A stretch of 64,000 nucleotides of DNA from Anaeromyxobacter sp. (GTDB lineage Bacteria > Myxococcota > Myxococcia > Myxococcales > Anaeromyxobacteraceae), in contig JASGJN010000021.1 in NCBI GenBank assembly GCA_049840735.1, positions 224,001-288,000 of the forward strand, in the 5' to 3' direction. Of this stretch, positions 3,563 to 56,230 are shown in pieces; the first letter of the stretch is position 1, and each line of letters opens with the position of its first letter. The position numbers and the translations under genes were made by a program. Under the pieces are notes generated by a model. The model ran no database searches. It worked only from the letters and a program-made list of their open reading frames with translations, and had not been told where the DNA came from.

Positions 3563-3674
3563 GCTTCGACTCCGCGAGCGCTGCGGGCTCGCTACGCCCT
3601 CGCTACGCCCAGCCCGAACGGAAGCCCGTTCGCCCTGAGCGTAGCCCCGGTGTGAGCCGCGGCGGAGTCGAAGC
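3563..3674. repeat. Palindromic repeat element, inverted two-arm (REPIN-like) copy 1
   Basis: CTTCGACTCCGC-hairpin-GCTACGCCCAGCCCGAACGG, short spacer, then CCGTTCGCCCTGAGCGTAGC...GCGGAGTCGAAG; small internal CGCTACGCCC duplication. Confidence 0.9.
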
Positions 3675-21759: not shown

Positions 21760-21816
21760 CTCGTGCTTCGACTCCGCGAGCCGGCTGTGCCGGCTCGCTA
21801 CGCTCAGCACGAACGG
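21760..21816 (+). repeat. Single arm of the palindromic repeat family
   Basis: CTCGTGCTTCGACTCCGCGAGCCGGCTGTGCCGGCTCGCTACGCTCAGCACGAACGG. Confidence 0.88.
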
Positions 21817-25605: not shown

Positions 25606-26109
25606 CCTTCGACTCCGCTGCCGCCTGCGGCGGCAGCTACGCTCAGGCCGAACGGGGCCGGGCGGAAGTGGCTCAGGCCGAACGGGGCCGGGCGGAGTCG
25701 GGCGGGAGCAGGGTCAGGCCGAGCGGGGCCGGGCGCAGGTCGGGCGGGTGGCGGTTCAGGCCGAACGGGGCCGGGCGGAGGTCGGGCGGGAGCAGGGTCA
25801 GGCCGAACGGGGTCGGGCGGGAGCGGGCTCAGGCCGAACGGGGCCGGGCGGAGGTCGGGCGGGAGCAGGGTCAGGCCGAGCGGGGCCGGGCGCAGGTCGG
25901 GCGGGAGCAGGGTCAGGCCGAGCGGGGCCGGGCGGAGGTCGGGCGGGAGCAGGGTCAGGCCGAACGGGGCCGGGCTCAGGTCGGGCGGGTGGCGGTTCAG
26001 GCCGAACGAGGCCGGGCGCAGGCGGGGCAGAAATGGCTCAGGCCGAACGGACACGGCAACCCCGTTCGCCCTGAGCGTAGCGAGCCCGCAGGGCTCGCGG
26101 AGTCGAAGG
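25606..26109. repeat. Two-arm palindromic element with internal tandem array (11 copies of the CAGGCCGA(A/G)CG core, mostly 42-bp period)
   Basis: Left arm starts at 25606, right arm 26062-26109; units at 25644, 25674, 25715, 25757, 25799, 25830, 25872, 25914, 25956, 25998, 26039. Confidence 0.92.
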
Positions 26110-28950: not shown

Positions 28951-30453
28951 ACGTGGTGCAGCAGCCGGCGCCGCCGCCCAAGGGGCAGCGCACGCACATC
29001 GGCCTCTTCGGCCGGCGCAACGTGGGCAAGTCCAGCCTGCTCAACGCGCTGGTCCGGCAGAGCGTCTCCATCGTCTCCGACCAGGCGGGCACCACCACCG
29101 ACCCGGTGGAGAAGCCCTTCGAGCTGCAGCCGCTGGGGCCCGTGCAGTTCATCGACACCGCCGGCATCGACGACGTGGGCGCGCTGGGCGAGCTGCGCGT
29201 CGCGAAGACGCGGCAGGTGATCGACCGGACCGACCTGGCCCTGCTGGTGACCGAGCCGGGCGTCTGGGGCGAGTACGAGCGGTCGCTGTGGGAGGAGCTG
29301 CAGCGGCGGGGCGTCGCCACGATCGTGGTGGTCAACAAGAGCGATCTGGCCCTGGCCTTCGACTCCGCTGCCGGCTTCGCCGGCAGCTACGCTCAGGCCG
29401 AACGGGGAGGCGGCGGCGAGGCGCAGGCCGAACGGGGAGGCGGCGGCGAGGCGCAGGCCGAGCGGGGGGGCGGTGGCGAGGCGCAGGCCGAGCGGGGGGG
29501 CGGTGGCGAGGCTCAGGCCGAACGGGGGGGCGGCTATGCTCAGGCCGAACGGAGCGGTGTCTCCGGTTCGACCAGCCTCAACACCGTTCCCCCTGAGCGT
29601 AGCGAGCCCGCAGGGCTCGCGGAGTCGAAGGGTCGAACGGGATTCGATTGCCGTCTCCGCCCACACCGGCGCCGGCCTCGACGCCCTCCGCGGCGAGCTG
29701 CTGGCCCGCGTGCCCCCCGAGTGCCTCCGCCCGCCCAGCATCCTGGGCGACCTGGTGGGCCCGGGCGAGCTGGCGGTGCTGGTGGTCCCCATCGACAAGG
29801 AGGCCCCCGCCGGCCGGCTGATCCTCCCCCAGGTGCAGTCCATCCGCGACCTGCTCGACAGCGACGCGATGTGCCTGGTGGTGAAGGAGCGCGAGCTGAA
29901 GGTGGCGCTGGAGCGGCTCAACCGGCCGCCGAAGCTGGTGGTCACCGACTCGCAGGCCTTCCTCAAGGTCTCGGCCGACGTGCCGAAGGGCGTGCCGCTC
30001 ACCAGCTTCTCGATCCTCTTCGCCCGCTACCGCGGCGACCTGGTCAAGCAGGTGGAGGGGGCGCTGGCGGTGGACGGGCTCCGCTCCGGCGACCGCGTCC
30101 TGGTGGCCGAGGCCTGCGGCCACCACCCCATCGGCGAGGACATCGGCCGGGTGAAGATCCCGCGCTGGCTGACCCAGTACACCGGCGCCAACCTCGAGTT
30201 CGTCCACACGCAGGGGCACGACTTCCCGGCCGACCTGCCCAGCTACAAGCTGGTGATCCACTGCGGCGCCTGCACGCTCAACCGGCGCGAGGTCACCGGC
30301 CGGCTGCGCCGCTGCGCCGACGCCGGCGTGCCGGTCACCAACTACGGCGTGGTCATCGCCCACAGCCTGGGCATCCTGGACCGCGTGCTGGACCCGTTCC
30401 CGGCCGCGCAGGAGGCGCTGCGGGCGGCGAAGGCGCGGCAGGAGACCGCGTGA
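28947..30453 (+). CDS. hydF: [FeFe]-hydrogenase maturation GTPase HydF carrying a repeat-derived insertion (apparent frameshift near 29643)
   Basis: GRRNVGKSS, GTTTD, DTAG, NKSD, then insertion, then AVSA, PIDKEAPAGRLILPQ, TDSQ, EACGHH, HCGAC, TNYG. Confidence 0.92.
29356..29640. repeat. Two-arm palindromic element inside hydF with 30-bp tandem array (6 units)
   Basis: Arms near-identical to those at 25606 and 26062; units at 29394, 29424, 29454, 29484, 29514, 29541. Confidence 0.92.
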
Positions 30454-31545
30454 TCCCCTGCCCTTCGACTCCGCCGGGGCCGGGGGCCCCGGCTACGCTC
30501 AGGGCGAACGGACTCCTCGAGCGACTCGAGCAGGAGCACGCGCTCGCGCGCGACGAGCTCATCACCCTGCTCGAGACCCCCGGCCTCGACGCCCCGCTGC
30601 TCGCCGCCGCCGACCGCGTCCGGCGCGCCAGCGTGGGCGACGAGGTCCACCTGCGCGGCCTGATCGAGTTCTCCAACCAGTGCGCGCGCAACTGCCTCTA
30701 CTGCGGCCTGCGCAAGGACAACCGCTCGCTCACGCGCTACCGGCTCACGCCGGACCAGGTCCTCGACCTGGCCCGCAAGGCGGTGGGCTACGGCTACCGC
30801 ACCGTGGTGCTCCAGTCCGGCGAGGGGACGCTCTATCGCCACGAGGAGCTGTGCGAGCTCCTGCGGGCCATCCACGGCCTGGGCGTGGCCATCACGCTCT
30901 CCCTCGGCGAGAAGACCCGCGCCCAGTACGAGGCCTACCGGGCCGCCGGGGCGGATCGCTACCTGCTCCGCATCGAGACCACCGACCGCGACCTCTATCA
31001 CCGGCTCGATCCCGGGCATGTCCTTCGACGACCGGGTGCGCTGCCTGCGCGACCTGCGCGAGCTGGGCTACGAGGTGGGCACCGGCTGCCTGGTGGGGCT
31101 GCCCGGCCAGACCCTGGCCTCGCTGGCGGACGACCTGCTCTTCTTCCAGGCCATCGACGCCGACATGATTGGCCTGGGCCCGTTCATCCCCAACCCGCGC
31201 ACGCCGCTGGGGAACGAGCCGGTGGGCAGCCTGGAGCTGGCGCTGCGGGTGATGGCCCTGGCGCGCCTGCTGCGCCCCGACGCCAACATCCCGGCCACCA
31301 CCGCGATGGAGACGCTCGACCCTGGCCGCGGCCGCGTGCGGGCGCTCAAGGGCGGGGCCAACGTGGTGATGCCCAACGTCACCGAGGGTGACGCCCGGCG
31401 GCTCTACGCGCTCTACCCCGGCAAGGCCTGCGCCGGCGAGGACCCGCAGGCCTGCAACGGCTGCCTGGGCAACACCATCGAGGCCATCGGCCGGACCATC
31501 TCGACGGGACAGGGGTTCCGGCGCGGGCGCGCGCCGCAGGCCTGA
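30450..31545 (+). CDS. hydE: [FeFe]-hydrogenase radical SAM maturase HydE (apparent frameshift near 31012)
   Basis: GDEVHLRGLIEFSNQCARNCLYCGLR, VLQSGE, LSLGE, RYLLRIET, GPFIP, PATTAM, GANVVMPN, Y.LYPGK; GTGA overlap with hydF stop. Confidence 0.92.
30462..30511 (+). repeat. Single repeat arm within the 5' end of hydE
   Basis: CCTTCGACTCCGCCGGGGCCGGGGGCCCCGGCTACGCTCAGGGCGAACGG. Confidence 0.88.
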
Positions 31546-36479: not shown

Positions 36480-38064
36480 CGCCGCCTGGCCCTCGAGGCC
36501 GCGCCCGCCCGGCGGCCCTGGCGGTCGCCCTGCTGGTGGCGGCGGTGGCGGTTTGGCCCGCCGCCGCCTTCGCCGCCAGCAAGGCCGAGACCGCCGCGCT
36601 GGCGGCGCTGCGCGCGCTGGCCGACGAGGACGTGGAGGGCGCGCGCCGGGCGCTGCAGCCGTTCGAGCCGCTCGACGCCGGTCCGCCGCCATCCTCTACG
36701 CCGCCGGCGCGCTCCGCTTCCACGAGCAGCGCTACCCCGAGGCGCTCCAGCTGCTGGAGACGTCGGGCGCCGGCAGCGCCGAGTACGTCGCGCTGGCCCG
36801 CGCGGCGCAGGCGGTCACGAAGGACCACGTCCGCGCCGAGGGCGAGCACTTCGTGGTCTCCTGCCCGAAGGGCAAGGACGAGGTGCTGGTCCCCTACCTG
36901 CTCGACGCGCTGGAGCGCCAGCGCGCCGCGCTGGTGAAGGCGCTGGGGCCGGTGCCGCCGGGCAAGGTGACGGTCGAGCTGGTCAACGACGTGAAGCAGC
37001 TGGCGGCGCTCACCACGCTCAGCGAGGCGGAGGTCCGCACCAGCGGCACGGTGGCGGTGTCCAAGTTCAACAAGCTGATGATGCTGTCGCCCAAGGCGCT
37101 GCTGAAGGGCTACGACTGGCTGGACACCGCGGCGCACGAGTACACGCACACGGCGGTGACGGCCCGCACCCGCAACCGCGCGCCCATCTGGCTGCAGGAG
37201 GGGCTGGCCAAGTGGTTCGAGGCGGCCTGGCGCGGCGGCACCGACGCGCTCACGCCCTTCTCGGCGGCGCTGGTGAAGGACGCGGTGGCCTCCAGGTCGC
37301 TGGTCACCTTCCAGGAGATGCACCCCTCGCTGGCCAAGCTCCCCTCGCAGGAGCGGGCGGCGCTGGCCTACGCGCAGGTGGTGCTGGCCATGGAGCACCT
37401 GGTCCAGGCGCGCGGGCCGCAGGCGCTGGGGCGCCTCACCGGCGAGATCGGCGAGGGCAAGCCGGTGGAGACCGCCGTGGCCGACGCGGCCGGCGTCCCC
37501 TTCGACCGCTTCCTCGCCGACTGGAGGAAGCACATGGCCACCCGCCCGCTGCCGCGCGGCGGCGACCACGAGCTGCGCCGGCTGCGCTTCAAGGACGATC
37601 CGAAGCAGGCCGGGGGCGAGTGGTCGGAGATCGGCGACCAGGAGGCGCAGGGCTGGGCGCGGCTGGGTGAGATCTTCCGGGCGCGCGGGCGCTGGGGCGC
37701 GGCGCGGCAGGAGTACGCCAAGGCCTACCAGAAGGTGGGCGCGCGCATCCCCATCCTCTCGGGCCAGTACGCGCTGGCGGCCAGCATGTCCGGCGCCAAG
37801 CCGGAGGCGGAGAAGGTGCTGGGCGAGGCGCTGGCCTGGAACCCGGACTACCCCGCCTTGAACCTCCAGCTGGCCCGGCTGCTGCTGGACCGCGGCCAGC
37901 TGCAGCAGGCCCGCGACCACCTGCTGGCGGCCAACCGCCAGGACCCCTTCGACCCCGAGATCCACGCTGGCCTGTCCAAGGTGCTGGAGGCGCTGGGTGA
38001 CCCCGGAGGCGCCTCGCGGGAGGCCCGCTTCGCGAGGATACTCACCGGCCAGGAGACCCCATGA
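36476..38064 (+). CDS. Exported peptidase MA-like (HExxH) / TPR protein (apparent frameshift near 36685)
   Basis: Signal peptide in the 36476 frame; AHEYTH...PIWLQEGLA and C-terminal TPR-like helices in the 36553 frame. Confidence 0.75.
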
Positions 38065-39089
38065 GCACGCCCACCGCGACCCCCCCGCCGCTGCCCGTCA
38101 ACCCGGAGGCCGACCTGCAGGCCGTGCACGAGCTGCACGACGCCCGGCGCATGATCCTCTCGGAGATCGAGAAGCGGATCGTGGGCCAGAAGGACGTGGT
38201 GGACTCGCTGCTGGTGGCGCTGTTCGCGCGCGGCCACTGCCTGTTCGTGGGCGTGCCCGGGCTGGCCAAGACCCTGCTCATCTCCACGGTGGCGGACGTC
38301 CTCGACCTCTCCTTCAACCGCATCCAGTTCACGCCGGACCTGATGCCCTCCGACATCACCGGCACCGACGTGCTGGAGGAGGACCACACCACCGGCCGCC
38401 GCGCCTTCCGCTTCGTGCGCGGCCCCATCTTCGCGAACCTGCTCCTGGCCGATGAGATCAACCGCACGCCGCCCAAGACGCAGGCGGCGCTGCTGCAGGC
38501 CATGCAGGAGTACCGGGTCACCGCCGGCGGCGAGACCTACCCGCTCGACCTGCCCTTCCTGGTCTTCGCCACCCAGAACCCCATCGAGCAGGAGGGGACC
38601 TACCCGCTCCCCGAGGCGCAGCTGGACCGGTTCATGTTCTACGTGAACGTGAGCTACCCCACCGCGCTGGAGGAGCTGGAGATCGTCCGCTCCACCACCG
38701 TCTCCAGCCGCCCGCCGCTCCACCGCGTCCTCTCCCCGCACAAGATCCGCGAGCTGCAGGACCTGGTGCTGCGCGTCCCCGCCGCCGACCACGTCATCAA
38801 GTACGCCGTCGAGCTGGTGCGCCGCACGCGCCCCGGCGAGCCGGGCGCGCCCGACTTCGTGAAGGACAACGTCTCCTGGGGCGCCGGTCCGCGCGCCAGC
38901 CAGTACCTGGTGCTGGGCGCCAAGAGCCGCGCCATCCTCGACGGCCGCATGGCCGCCAGCGAGGAGGACGTCCGCGCCCTGGCGCGCAACGTCCTCGTCC
39001 ACCGCGTCATCACCAACTTCCGCGCCGAGAGCGAGGGCGTCACCAGCCAGCAGATCGTGGAGCGGCTGGTGGAGAAGGTCAGGGTGTGA
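38061..39089 (+). CDS. moxR: MoxR family AAA+ ATPase
   Basis: GVPGLAKT, RIQFTPDLMPSDITG, DEINR, ATQNPIEQEGTYPLPEAQLDRF. Confidence 0.95.
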   Translation: MSTPTATPPPLPVNPEADLQAVHELHDARRMILSEIEKRIVGQKDVVDSLLVALFARGHCLFVGVPGLAKTLLISTVADVLDLSFNRIQFTPDLMPSDITGTDVLEEDHTTGRRAFRFVRGPIFANLLLADEINRTPPKTQAALLQAMQEYRVTAGGETYPLDLPFLVFATQNPIEQEGTYPLPEAQLDRFMFYVNVSYPTALEELEIVRSTTVSSRPPLHRVLSPHKIRELQDLVLRVPAADHVIKYAVELVRRTRPGEPGAPDFVKDNVSWGAGPRASQYLVLGAKSRAILDGRMAASEEDVRALARNVLVHRVITNFRAESEGVTSQQIVERLVEKVRV

Positions 39090-39140
39090 GGGGCGCAGGT
39101 GGTCGCCTCGGCTCCGCGGCAGGGGCCGGTTCACCCGAAT

Positions 39141-39748
39141 CCGTTCGGGCTGAGTCCTTCGACTTCGCGCCCGCGGGGCGGGCGCTACGCTCAGGACGAG
39201 CGGAGTCGAAGCCCAGGCGCTGTCGGTCCCCGTTCATCCTTCGACTCCGGGCCCGGAGAGTCGGAGGCGGCCGGGACGGAGCCCGGGCCCTACGCTCAGG
39301 ACGAACGGGATGCGAACGGCGCACGGGCCCAGGTGGCAGCTCCGGTCGGGCAGAGCGCAGCGGCAGCGGAGCGGCCGCGGAGTCGAAGCCCAGGTCGGCA
39401 CCGGGACCAGCAGGCTGTCGGTCCCCGTTCATCCTTCGACTCCGGGCCCGGAGAGTCGGAGGCGGCCGGGACCGAGCCCGGGCCCTACGCTCAGGACGAA
39501 CGGGATGCGAACGGCGCACGGGCCCAGGTGGCAGCTCCGGTCGGGCTGAGCGTAGTGGCCTGGCAGGCGAATCCGTTCGGGCTGAGCGTAGCGGCCGCGC
39601 AGCGGCCGCGGAGTCGAAGCCCAGGGATCGGCCAGGGAGCGGAAAAGGGCCGTGATACGGACCTGGGTCCGCGGTACGGACCCCATCCGTTCGCCCTGAG
39701 CGTAGCCGCCGTCCGCCAGGACGGCGGCGAAGTCGAAGGGGCGAACGG
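39141..39748. repeat. BIME-like cluster of 8 repeat arms upstream of the GIY-YIG gene
   Basis: Arms at about 39141 (nested arm at 39156), 39230, 39342, 39425, 39537, 39573, 39687; block duplicated at a 195-bp offset. Confidence 0.9.
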
Positions 39749-39785
39749 GATCCGCCTTCGCACGGTTCTTGAACTGCTCCGAGGC

Positions 39786-40815
39786 ATGAAGCCCTTCTTC
39801 GTCTACATGCTGGAGTGCGCCGACGGCACCTACTACACGGGCCACACCGAGGATCTCGAGGCGCGCCTCGCCGAGCACCAGGCCGGCGAGACGCCGGGGT
39901 ACACGAAGAAGCGCCGCCCGGTCGAGCTGGTGTGGTGCGCCGAGTTCGCCCGGCGGGACGAGGCGCTCGAGCGGGAACTCCAGATCAAGGGCTGGACGCG
40001 GGCCAAGAAGCAGGCGCTCATCGAGGAGGACTGGGGTGAGATCAGGCGGCTCGCGCGAGGGCCTGACCGCAAGCTGCGACCCCGTTCATCCTTCGACTTC
40101 GCTTGCCCTGAGCGTAGCGCCGCCCCGGCGGCGCGGAGCCGAAGGGCTCAGGACGAACGGGATACGAACGGCTCGCGGGCCCCGGGAGCAGATCCGTTCG
40201 GGCTGAGCGTAGCGGCCGCGGAGCGGCCGCGGAGTCGAAGCCCAGGCGCTGTCGGTCCCCGTTCATCCTTCGACTTCGGGCCCGGAGCGTCAGCGGCAGG
40301 CGGGACCAGGCCCGGGCCCTACGCTCAGGACGAACGGGATACGAACGGCTCGCGGGCCCCGGGAGCAGATCCGTTCGGGCTGAGCGTAGCGGCCGCGGAG
40401 CGGCCGCGGAGTCGAAGCCCGGGCGCTGTCGGTCCCCGTTCATCCTTCGACTTCGGGCCCGGAGCGTCAGCGGCAGGTGGGACCGAGCCCGGGCCCTACG
40501 CTCAGGACGAACGGGATACGAACGGCTCGCGGGCCCCGGGAGCAGATCCGTTCGGGCTGAGCGTAGCGGCCGCGGAGCGGCCGCGGAGTCGAAGCCCGGG
40601 CGCTGTCGGTCCCCGTTCATCCTTCGACTTCGGGCCCGGAGCGTCAGCGGCAGGTGGGACCGAGCCCGGGCCCTACGCTCAGGACGAACGGGATACGAAC
40701 GGCTCGCGGGCCCCGGGAGCGGATCCGTTCGGGCTTAGCGTAGCGGCCGCGGAGCGGCCGCGGAGTCGAAGCCCGGGCGCTGACCAGCGTCGAAGCCCAG
40801 GGAGTCACCGGAACC

Positions 40816-40823
<8 letters not shown>
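39786..40823 (+). CDS. GIY-YIG nuclease (UPF0213/YhbQ-like, about 95-aa domain) with repeat-derived C-terminal extension
   Basis: MKPFFVYMLECADGTYYTGHTEDLEARLAEH...YT..RRPVELVW...ALERELQIKGWTRAKKQALI; GAGG just before ATG; no stop until 40821-40823. Confidence 0.9.
40082..40798. repeat. BIME-like tandem array (177-bp period) of alternating repeat arms downstream of the GIY-YIG domain
   Basis: T(G/T)AGCGTAGC recurs at 40204, 40381, 40558, 40735; units nearly identical; 9 arms including one nested. Confidence 0.93.
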
Positions 40824-41719
<896 letters not shown>

Positions 41720-41723
<4 letters not shown>

Positions 41724-46370: not shown

Positions 46371-46971
46371 GCTTCGACTCCGCGAGCCCTGCGGGCTCGC
46401 TACGCTCAGCCCGAACGGCGGTGGACCACCCGTTCGCCTGCGCCCAGTCCGAACGGTGGTGGACCACCCGTTCGCCTACGCCCAGTCCGGACAGCGGTGG
46501 ACCACCCGTTCGCCTACGCTCAGGCCGAACGGCGGTGGACCACCCGTTCGCCTACGCTCAGGCCGAACGGCGGTGGACCACCCGTTCGCCTACGCCCAGG
46601 CCGAACGGCGGTGGACCACCCGTTCGCCTACGCCCAGTCCGGACGGCGGTGGACCACCCGTTCGCCTACGCCCAGTCCGAACGGTGGTGGACCATCCGTT
46701 CGCCTACGCTCGGCCCGAACGGCGGTGGACCACCCGTTCGCCTACGCCCAGTCCGGACAGCGGCGGACCACCCGTTCGCCTACGCCCAGTCCGGACAGCG
46801 GTGGACCACCCGTTCGCCTACGCCCAGTCCGGACAGCGGTGGACCACCCGTTCGCCTACGCCCAGTCCGGACAGCGGTGGACCACCCGTTCGCCTGCGCC
46901 CAGTCCGGACAGCGGTGGACCACCCGTTCGCCCTGAGCGTAGCCGCGGCGAAGCCGCGGCGGAGTCGAAGG
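46371..46971. repeat. Two-arm palindromic element with 38-bp tandem array (13 periods)
   Basis: CCGTTCGCC recurs every 38 bp from 46430 to 46924; unit is left-arm tail + CGGTGGACCAC + right-arm head. Confidence 0.95.
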
Positions 46972-53344: not shown

Positions 53345-53584
53345 CCTTCGACTCCGGGCTCGCCTGCGGCGAGCCCTACGCTCAGGCCGAACGGGGTCGT
53401 GGCCTGAGGCTGAACGGGGGCGTGGGCACAGGCTGAGCGGGGGCGTGGGCACAGGCTGAGCGGGGGCGTGGCCACAGGCTGAACGGGGACGTGGGCCCAG
53501 TCCGAACGGTCGGGCCCAGGCCGAACGGCCAGTGGACCGTTCGCCCTGAGCGTAGCCGCGGCGACGCCGCGGCGGAGTCGAAGG
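53345..53584. repeat. Two-arm palindromic element with 23-bp tandem array (7 units) between convergent genes
   Basis: Units at 53383, 53406, 53429, 53452, 53475, 53498, 53517; right arm 53537-53584. Confidence 0.92.
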
Positions 53585-56142: not shown

Positions 56143-56230
56143 CCCCCGGTCGTGCTTCGACTCCGCGGGCCCTGCGGGCCCGCTACGCTCAGCATGACCG
56201 GGGTGGGGGCGGCAGGCTCAGGGCGAGCGG
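56143..56230 (+). repeat. Single repeat arm plus duplicated arm tail between the two GH13 genes
   Basis: CCGGTCGTGCTTCGACTCCGCGGGCCCTGCGGGCCCGCTACGCTCAGCATGACCGG followed by GCTCAGGGCGAGCGG. Confidence 0.85.

Follow-up and report, generated by a model that had tools for sequence, protein, structure and literature searches.

What does a solitary GIY-YIG nuclease gene do among palindromic repeats that are dispersed throughout the genome that carries it? The question is raised by a 1.7-kb cassette of Anaeromyxobacter sp. that lies in a 64,000-nucleotide stretch of contig JASGJN010000021.1 (positions 224,001 to 288,000; G000:C21:224001-288000), hereafter the window; the source genome, G000, is a 6.67-Mb draft of 26 contigs with 71-76% G+C. 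The cassette stands between moxR and a DUF58 gene, and the sole protein-family match inside it is a GIY-YIG catalytic domain, here named GIY-A. An earlier note on this DNA, made from its letters alone, had proposed that this protein replaces the transposase of a repetitive extragenic palindrome (REP) system, recognising or nicking the surrounding hairpins and spreading them. Our comparisons support the pairing of enzyme and hairpin, both by layout and by the matching of variants, but the idea that the enzyme spreads the repeats in a transposase's place was not borne out. Our preferred reading, to which we assign a probability of roughly 0.55, is that GIY-A is the partner of the flanking hairpins and is predicted to bind one of their two strands when it is folded as single-stranded DNA (ssDNA), cutting beside or inside the hairpin. 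The parts of the cassette are the following, in window positions.

39117..39625, no strand assigned: upstream hairpin array, with cores at 39157-39194 (-), 39239-39299 (-), 39434-39494 (-) and 39546-39619 (+)
39687..39748, + strand: upstream arm, a full palindromic copy in the gene's sense (core 39696-39738), ending 38 nt before the ATG
39786..40082, + strand: GIY-YIG nuclease domain GIY-A (Pfam GIY-YIG, residues 4-75, E 4.7e-19)
40082..40160, - strand: downstream arm, inverted and composite, directly after the nuclease domain
40146..40782, no strand assigned: downstream tandem array (Tandem Repeats Finder: 3.6 units of 177 nt, 98% matches, score 1232)

GIY-A, a 99-residue GIY-YIG domain protein starting at the ATG at 39786, matched no further domain in the Pfam search and keeps Y7, Y17, G19, R27, H31 and E64. 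Among 81 homologues, Y7, Y17, R27, H31 and E64 were invariant or nearly so, and all 30 positions conserved in at least 85% of them were present in GIY-A, in agreement with the stand-alone domain with intact motif residues that had first been read from the sequence. Its best relatives of solved structure are the UPF0213 proteins BH0048 (PDB 1zg2, E 1.6e-15 over residues 4-84) and EF2693 (PDB 1ywl, E 2.5e-12). GIY-A shares its size and single-domain build with UPF0213 and SLX1 proteins, and the similarity runs over the whole domain; the entry titles of the solved UPF0213 proteins, however, name no repeat partner. No NCBIfam model matched GIY-A or its paralogue GIY-B. Matches to PF01541 were found at three places in G000, namely GIY-A, GIY-B (C2:199305) and C17:615115, the last of which we take to be UvrC, and GIY-A is the only one of them with flanking arms. 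A search of 41 genomes recovered GIY-B in all but three, two of which are 70-74% complete; it had no arms in any of the three loci examined, and it formed an arm-less group of its own on an approximate tree built with FastTree from about 90 columns and without support values.

The bounds of the gene needed correction: the domain stands as described, with no stop before 40823, and about 247 repeat-encoded codons follow it. One frame remains open on the + strand from 39099 to 40823 (574 codons), running through both repeat arrays and GIY-A to a stop just past the DUF58 ATG at 40816. The 177-nt unit of the downstream array equals 59 codons, and the array therefore preserves the reading frame; stop-poor frames are in any case expected at 73% G+C. 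A real repeat-tailed protein encoded by 39099-40823 was considered and rejected, as the tail is not conserved in relatives. Since the open frames that hold the GIY-A orthologues of the genus vary from 117 to 627 residues, with homology stopping at about residue 95-99, we treat the tail as a by-product of stop-poor repeats.

Two arms in inverted orientation do bracket the gene, as had been claimed, and the downstream arm proved to be composite, with a nested + copy (40108-40144) in place of the inner hairpin expected of the - copy. The upstream arm closes its outer stem and gave a DNA fold of -28.0 kcal/mol. In the upstream array, the core at 39546-39619 consists of a truncated 5′ box followed by a full copy. 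In the downstream array, whose cores start at 40203, 40268, 40380, 40445, 40557, 40622 and 40734, each 177-nt unit comprises one short + copy and one long - copy, and the units are mutually 98-99% identical. Arrays were thus confirmed on both sides, while the earlier count of about 17 arms came to 13 by a strict regular expression (39157-40771) and to 15 by a relaxed search for the 5′ box within 2 kb on either side.

The repeat itself has the consensus CCGTTCG-NN-C.CTGAGCGTAG-[stem 6-8 bp, loop 3-4]-CG(G/A)AGTCGAAG.G-NN-CAGG, and its ends are sharp, with CCGTTCG at the 5′ side and CAGG or CGAACGG at the 3′ side. It is predicted to fold into a three-part hairpin. An outer stem pairs CCGTTCG-NNC with GNN-CGAACGG, a minority of copies ending in CGAACGG and closing this long stem while many carry CAGG instead; an asymmetric, conserved internal loop sets CTGAGCGTAG opposite CG(G/A)AGTCGAAG; and a variable, covarying inner stem-loop is preceded in the consensus by GTAG. 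The exact pattern occurs 392 times in the genome, as against none for a backwards control, and allowing one mismatch per box raises the number to 548, which supplies the genome-wide count that the earlier note had proposed as a check. Of these 548 copies, 97% can form outer pair 1 and 96% outer pair 2, compared with 63% and 43% when partners are shuffled, and an uninterrupted inner stem of at least 5 bp is found in 244 of 288 distinct centres versus 5 of 288 shuffled ones. For 15 copies of the window, 96.8% of cells are paired (67.2% in shuffles) and 46 cells are changed on both sides (13.9 in shuffles), while sliding the partner by one to three columns left at most 48% paired. The hairpin structure is under selection.

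These palindromes are extragenic, both dispersed and in alternating arrays of the kind known as bacterial interspersed mosaic elements (BIMEs). By rough open reading frame (ORF) calls covering 61% of the genome, 46 of the 548 copies lie inside ORFs, as against 299 of 548 random places, and 175 lie within 60 nt after a predicted stop, as against 17. Among the copies directly after a stop, 138 are antisense and 37 sense to the preceding gene genome-wide; antisense is also the orientation of the copy downstream of GIY-A. The avoidance of ORFs, the crowding behind stops and the antisense bias would all suit elements that act at the RNA level, as 3′-end stabilisers or terminator-like hairpins, and that lie near the nuclease gene since intergenic space collects them. 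Such a role could coexist with the preferred reading, but as a replacement for it we find it very improbable. No Rfam family reached the gathering threshold over the window, nor was any found at E <= 1 over 38900-41000, and the copies inspected have no T run after the hairpin; moreover, an RNA-level role leaves unaccounted for both the layout conserved at one gene clade across phyla and the matching of variants to that clade, to which we now turn.

Orthologues of GIY-A (E <= 1e-30) were found in 14 genomes among 40 relatives, and in 11 genomes of the genus the gene stands at the moxR|DUF58 junction in the same orientation, mostly with arms. This synteny could be simple inheritance, and the weight of the argument therefore rests on homologues in other contexts. 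These comprise a second paralogue in G009 and in G020, three copies in G217, two in G277, and single copies in G032, G039, G109, G148, G237, G259 and G305, and hairpins built in the same way border every one of these genes. Among 26 loci of the phylum, 15 had a regular-expression hit upstream (11 had none), and in all 15 the closest such element ran in the gene's sense; 19 had a hit downstream, and in 13 of them the closest element was inverted; in four of the loci that the expression missed, further hairpin variants were visible by eye. Outside the phylum, the best 80 of 542 confirmed homologue loci (51-69% identity), drawn from Sphingomonadales, Burkholderiales, Dehalococcoidia and others, included 32 with a sense copy upstream, 34 with an inverted copy downstream and 25 with both, compared with 0 upstream and 2 downstream in a reversed-flank control. 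The expectation that orthologues keep their flanking arms was accordingly borne out in many lineages. The core of the elements outside the phylum is mostly CTGAGC(TT/CT/GAA)GTCGAAGG, which leads us to regard the window's family as the same element with a central GTAG-plus-hairpin module added; in other lineages, elements without the GTAG module (CTGAGCTTGTCGAAGG, CCCGAGCGAAGTCGAGGG) still flank the nuclease gene.

Within each genome, the dispersed hairpins and those beside the nuclease gene are of matching variants. Three variants other than that of the window illustrate this.

CCGAGCGTAG..GAGACGAGG: flanks the second paralogue in G009 and G020 (loci L009 and L010); 71 and 101 copies, respectively; 0 in G000, G006 and G014
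CCCGAGCGRAGTCGAGGG: flanks the genes of G217 and G305; 798 and 387 copies, respectively; 0 in G277, G029 and G000
CCTGAGGTATCGAAGG: flanks the homologue in G315; 144 copies; 0 in G000 and G006

In G009, two paralogues coexist with two hairpin variants, ..GAGTCGAAG and ..GAGACGAGG. Between CTGAGC/GTCGAAG and CCGAGC/GTCGAGG, one predicted pair differs at both of its positions, T-A being replaced by C-G. On the approximate tree, the hairpin variants cluster with nuclease subclades, so that the co-phylogeny check proposed in the earlier note came out in favour of co-variation. From these comparisons, the link between the nuclease clade and the hairpin family is well supported and is not a matter of chance.

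The same layout could be read the other way round, with the GIY-A gene as a selfish gene of the homing type that uses pre-existing repeats as landing sites while something else spreads them. The gene always lies between hairpin copies. Eight relatives lack it at the moxR|DUF58 junction; six of them have no cassette there at all (the empty sites that had been looked for), and the others are G020 and G019, the latter with a different cassette that suggests an invasion hot spot; and GIY-A is closer to homologues of Burkholderiales than to the syntenic genes of its own genus. On the other hand, GIY-A consists of a 78-position catalytic domain alone, lacking the joined DNA-binding domain of GIY-YIG homing endonucleases such as those like I-TevI, the flanks are two whole copies in a fixed sense and antisense layout and not halves of a split target, and a dispersed variant that tracks the enzyme subclade would be left unexplained. 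We therefore hold this alternative to be rather improbable. As to the identities themselves, GIY-A is 66-69% identical to the Burkholderiales homologues and 59-66% identical to the syntenic genes of the genus, while the neighbouring MoxR is 88-93% identical within the genus; the higher identity outside the genus means either that the gene evolves fast or that the cassette was replaced through transfer.

Whether such an association had already been described was left open by the earlier note, and for the kind of association the answer is yes: a small GIY-YIG nuclease with a flanking, dispersed hairpin was published in 2025 for the Ssn family. According to the accessible parts of Chenal et al. 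(Nat Commun 2025; PMC11893778), small single-domain GIY-YIG Ssn proteins (CDD cd10448) are flanked by NTS/SRM hairpins that are also dispersed in hundreds of copies, and four purified Ssn homologues cut ssDNA beside their own hairpin, with neither double-stranded DNA nor RNA being cut. The same parts liken the layout to IS200/RAYT-REP (RAYT, REP-associated tyrosine transposase) and hypothesise a domestication that led to repeat expansion. The resemblance to GIY-A is close as far as those parts go: a single GIY-YIG domain of about 100 residues, a gene flanked on both sides by a dispersed and directional hairpin with conserved unpaired letters, and many enzyme/hairpin pairs with specificities of their own.

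Several differences set the two systems apart. The published SRM pattern touched none of the 548 copies, its 55 hits in G000 lying elsewhere, and SRM or NTS was found in 1 of 80 homologue loci (the best 80 of 542). The hairpin of GIY-A is three-part with a large conserved internal loop, and cleavage by the GIY-A clade is a prediction only. GIY-A is 38% identical over 69 residues to an NTS-flanked Ssn-type protein (L113, from G315), which occupies a long separate branch of the tree. That identity, the best matches to UPF0213 and the separate branch point, indirectly, to a position of GIY-A outside the core of cd10448. For four Anaeromyxobacter genomes, Supplementary Data 4 of PMC11893778 gives an SRM enrichment of 0.44-0.78 fold, i.e. 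none. The supplements of that paper, in the parts accessible, list no protein accessions, and two homologues and the Ssn-type positive control were all unfound there. As far as could be tested from sequence, the GIY-A/hairpin pair thus appears not to be covered by the Ssn work. Among the papers listed by our literature searches, which included Ssn follow-ups from 2025 on, there was no description of the CTGAGC/GTCGAAG hairpin or of the GIY-A clade with repeats.

The two systems coexist in Azohydromonas aeria (G315). One consists of the 103-residue GIY-YIG gene of L113 beside NTS-like hairpins, with 59 NTS matches at two mismatches or fewer in the genome, and the other of a GIY-A homologue (68% identical) with its own CCTGAGGTATCGAAGG hairpin. 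Most copies of either hairpin family in this genome are arranged as inverted doublets with a fixed spacing of about 124 nt (NTS-like) and about 137 nt (CCTGAGGTATCGAAGG), as at C2:113757-113908 and C2:35336-35488, an arrangement that resembles the REPIN doublets of REP systems. The two families can also lie side by side: in a metagenome-assembled genome of Dehalococcoidia (L095:1040-1560), a nuclease homologue is followed by a long CTGAGC..GTCGAAG copy and then by four NTS-like hairpins.

The layout also recalls the REP/REPIN elements and their RAYT (TnpA-REP) enzymes, the REPtrons with their BIME arrays (PMC2817692, PMC3116915, PMC3337134). In the parts of these sources at hand, one enzyme gene is bracketed by inverted extragenic palindromes that are also dispersed as singlets, doublets and alternating arrays, usually with one gene per variant and with variants that co-diversify with the enzyme. 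The difference lies in the flanked enzyme, here a GIY-YIG protein and not an HUH Y1 transposase. GIY-YIG nucleases are hydrolytic. The inner module of the window's element, GTAG plus a palindrome, is shared with the GTAG-tagged REPs, which the available passages of Di Nocera et al. (2013; PMC3733652) set beside a CGTC-tagged superfamily without a dedicated transposase; the outer boxes CTGAGC and GTCGAAG do not occur in those passages, and the text available contains no mention of Anaeromyxobacter, Myxococc- or GIY. Since NTS begins with CGTC, the CGTC-tagged REPs may be the partners of Ssn proteins.

The GTAG-plus-palindrome signature, which those passages link to RAYT, together with the six Y1_Tnp matches in the genome, would allow a RAYT/IS200-like Y1 transposase to move the repeats through their central module, leaving the GIY-YIG gene a bystander. 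To this we give the least credence of all: around the six Y1_Tnp genes there is no strict element out to 3 kb and no relaxed 5′ box out to 2 kb (a relaxed search for the 3′ box was too noisy, with 1-6 hits near unrelated genes), and the nuclease is flanked in other lineages by the elements without the GTAG module. A RAYT/IS200-like enzyme flanked by the same arms, which the earlier note had named as grounds for abandoning its proposal, was accordingly not found.

How the preferred reading would work can be outlined as follows. Strand-specific cutting of the hairpin by GIY-A is what we infer from the Ssn precedent taken together with the intact catalytic residues, and the conserved loop letters would be the recognition site. 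Cuts at existing copies would be mended by host repair from other copies; this would produce tandem expansions, nested copies and enrichment near the gene, and so might maintain or multiply the hairpin family. A role of the nuclease in multiplying the repeats is in that sense plausible.

Observations on the turnover of the repeats can be set beside this outline. Excluding the cassette itself, 42 copies lie within 100 kb of it, compared with 16.4 expected, and one centre sequence is common to 61 copies of the genome. In G006, 33 of 55 copies lie within 500 kb of its gene (20% of the genome, the contig being taken as circular), and in G021, 13 of 31 (15% of the genome). The near-identical tandem units, the common centre sequence and the clustering near the gene are signs of recent activity. 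G006, which has the gene, carries 55 copies, whereas its near relative G014, which lacks it, carries 19. Seven region pairs of these two genomes were compared, one of which gave no alignment and one an ambiguous one; two pairs showed extra tandem units in G006, and in two others G006 carried an array or nested copies at a position occupied in G014 by 13-33 nt or by a decayed copy, the direction of the difference being biased as the loci were chosen from the surplus copies of G006. In the nested cases at 40082-40160 and at L123, the inner copy is placed between the two boxes, a slight hint that DNA enters the element at its centre.

The distribution over genomes gives a mixed picture. Among 301 genomes of the phylum, the exact window motif occurs in 18, GIY-A (E <= 1e-22) in 17 and both in 11; in other words, the motif is present in 11 of the 17 genomes with the GIY-A clade and in 7 of the 284 without it. 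The earlier note had asked whether nuclease-less genomes lack the repeats, and this held for 277 of the 284 and failed for seven, two of them complete. Six genomes have the gene without the window motif; two of these, G217 and G305, have their own variant in hundreds of copies. In G277, G109 and G148, variant copies were seen only beside the nuclease gene.

A number of points weigh against the preferred reading. The complete genomes G014 (19 copies) and G023 (13) carry repeats and no nuclease, either at the junction or elsewhere, and are real exceptions that speak against a simple dependence of the repeats on the nuclease. The drafts G280 (102 copies), G290 (27) and G240 (12) also lack the gene, as do G027 (4) and G294 (1); since the gene often lies at contig ends, its absence from drafts is weak evidence. 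G020 holds 44 copies of the window motif, and its only gene of the clade is flanked by another variant, while G004 and G007 have the gene and 0 and 2 copies of the exact pattern, respectively (G004 is a draft with the gene 233 nt from a contig end). Much of the flanking within the genus could be inherited, given the shared synteny, and the genomes being related, the 301-genome figures describe a sample and are not a test. The density of arms, expected to peak at GIY-A, does not do so in G000: with 13 elements, the cassette ranks third in density among the genome's 2-kb stretches. The region pairs of G006 and G014 contained no clean new insertion with readable ends. To our knowledge, GIY-YIG nucleases do not transfer strands or insert DNA. 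As a separate observation, the denser arrays of the window's family lie at C19:65769-67714 (19 elements in 2 kb) and C20:653843-655298 (14), and tblastn detected no GIY-YIG remnant at either.

Much of the same evidence bears on an alternative that accepts GIY-A as the cognate hairpin cutter and regards it as domesticated, with no part in multiplying the repeats, which would spread by replication slippage and recombination alone. The enzyme would then perform a host service such as limiting recombination or incoming hairpin-bearing ssDNA, as proposed for SsnA/NTS in Neisseria. In the 11 genomes of the genus the gene is single-copy and syntenic, and it runs in the direction of the moxR operon; the repeats persist in genomes without it; and what the accessible parts of the Ssn paper show is an effect on transformation, a role in spread being merely hypothesised (PMC11893778). 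Gene-bearing genomes nevertheless tend to have more copies, as the comparison of G006 with G014 illustrates, several genomes hold two or three gene copies, each with its own hairpin variant, and the gene, occurring in many contexts with up to 69% identity across phyla, looks mobile. We consider the domesticated enzyme unlikely, although it is the most credible of the alternatives considered here.

Should GIY-A cut its hairpin, as the preferred reading predicts, a second nuclease clade would come under the Ssn principle, together with a hairpin family that escapes the published motif and flanks the nuclease gene in Sphingomonadales, Burkholderiales, Dehalococcoidia and others. Much of the repeat DNA of high-GC genomes (about 550 copies in G000) would then have a likely partner, and compact ssDNA nucleases with new recognition sites would be added to those known. 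The two paralogues with two variants in G009 and the two systems in G315 offer natural tests of specificity. Apart from their partner, the hairpin repeats matter in practice, as they break assemblies, the gene often lying at the ends of draft contigs, and create spurious long ORFs such as the 574-residue frame described above. A broader and more doubtful proposal, which we put forward tentatively, is that UPF0213-like GIY-YIG nucleases and three-part hairpins form a second, pan-bacterial class of REP-like replicators, co-diversifying, able to live beside Ssn/NTS pairs in one cell without crossing over, and multiplying through cuts that are mended from other repeats. If true, this would account for the CTGAGC..GTCGAAG repeats that are so common between the genes of many phyla, and a new set of programmable ssDNA cutters would become available.

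Beyond the cassette, the eight dispersed loci named in the earlier note are all real, and five more copies were found in the window, starting at 3635, 26071, 29593, 46933 and 53546. The statement that dispersed copies usually lie just after stop codons holds in part: 6 of the 13 copies in the window are within 40 nt after a predicted stop, and the genome-wide share is that given above. The dispersed copies of the window are listed below.

3564..3673: two dispersed copies, 3564-3612 (- strand) and 3635-3673 (+ strand), strict regular expression
21766..21807, - strand: dispersed copy, strict regular expression
25607..25646, - strand: dispersed copy, 11 nt after a predicted stop
26071..26108, + strand: dispersed copy, strict regular expression
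29357..29396, - strand: dispersed copy, strict regular expression
29593..29630, + strand: dispersed copy, outer stem closed
30463..30502, - strand: dispersed copy, 10 nt after a predicted stop
46372..46409, - strand: dispersed copy, strict regular expression
46933..46970, + strand: dispersed copy, 21 nt after the stop of a - strand gene
53346..53385, - strand: dispersed copy, strict regular expression
53546..53583, + strand: dispersed copy, 15 nt after the stop of a - strand gene
56155..56192, - strand: dispersed copy, 28 nt after a predicted stop

In 15 listed sequencing runs, at most 0.06 of the sampled words were contained.

The genes on either side of the cassette are those that the earlier note had named as its neighbours.

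38061..39089, + strand: moxR (AAA_3 ATPase), upstream neighbour (Pfam AAA_3, E 7.5e-61)
40816..41723, + strand: DUF58 gene (PF01882), downstream neighbour, in two frames (Pfam DUF58, E 3.4e-43)

The DUF58 gene is split over two ORFs in different frames, 40816-41043 and 40950-41723, and by-eye comparison with G014 shows one base fewer near 40932 (aagtcgccgcac in G014, aagtcccgcac in the window); the split represents either a frameshifted gene or an assembly error. In the relatives without the cassette, moxR directly abuts DUF58 in G014, G017, G290 and G240, with a stop/start overlap of TAGTG in G014, and is separated from it by a spacer of about 165-185 nt in G022 and G023. In G020 the spacer measures about 320 nt and contains a single hairpin element and no GIY-A gene. 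The junction of G019 (L130:1880-2514) is occupied by another cassette, about 620 nt long, in which a truncated ORF of the 23S_rRNA_IVP family (PF05635, E 1.8e-11) lies on the opposite strand, bordered by GACGTG repeats in inverted runs, and because of this second cassette the moxR|DUF58 junction looks like a hot spot for small cassettes.

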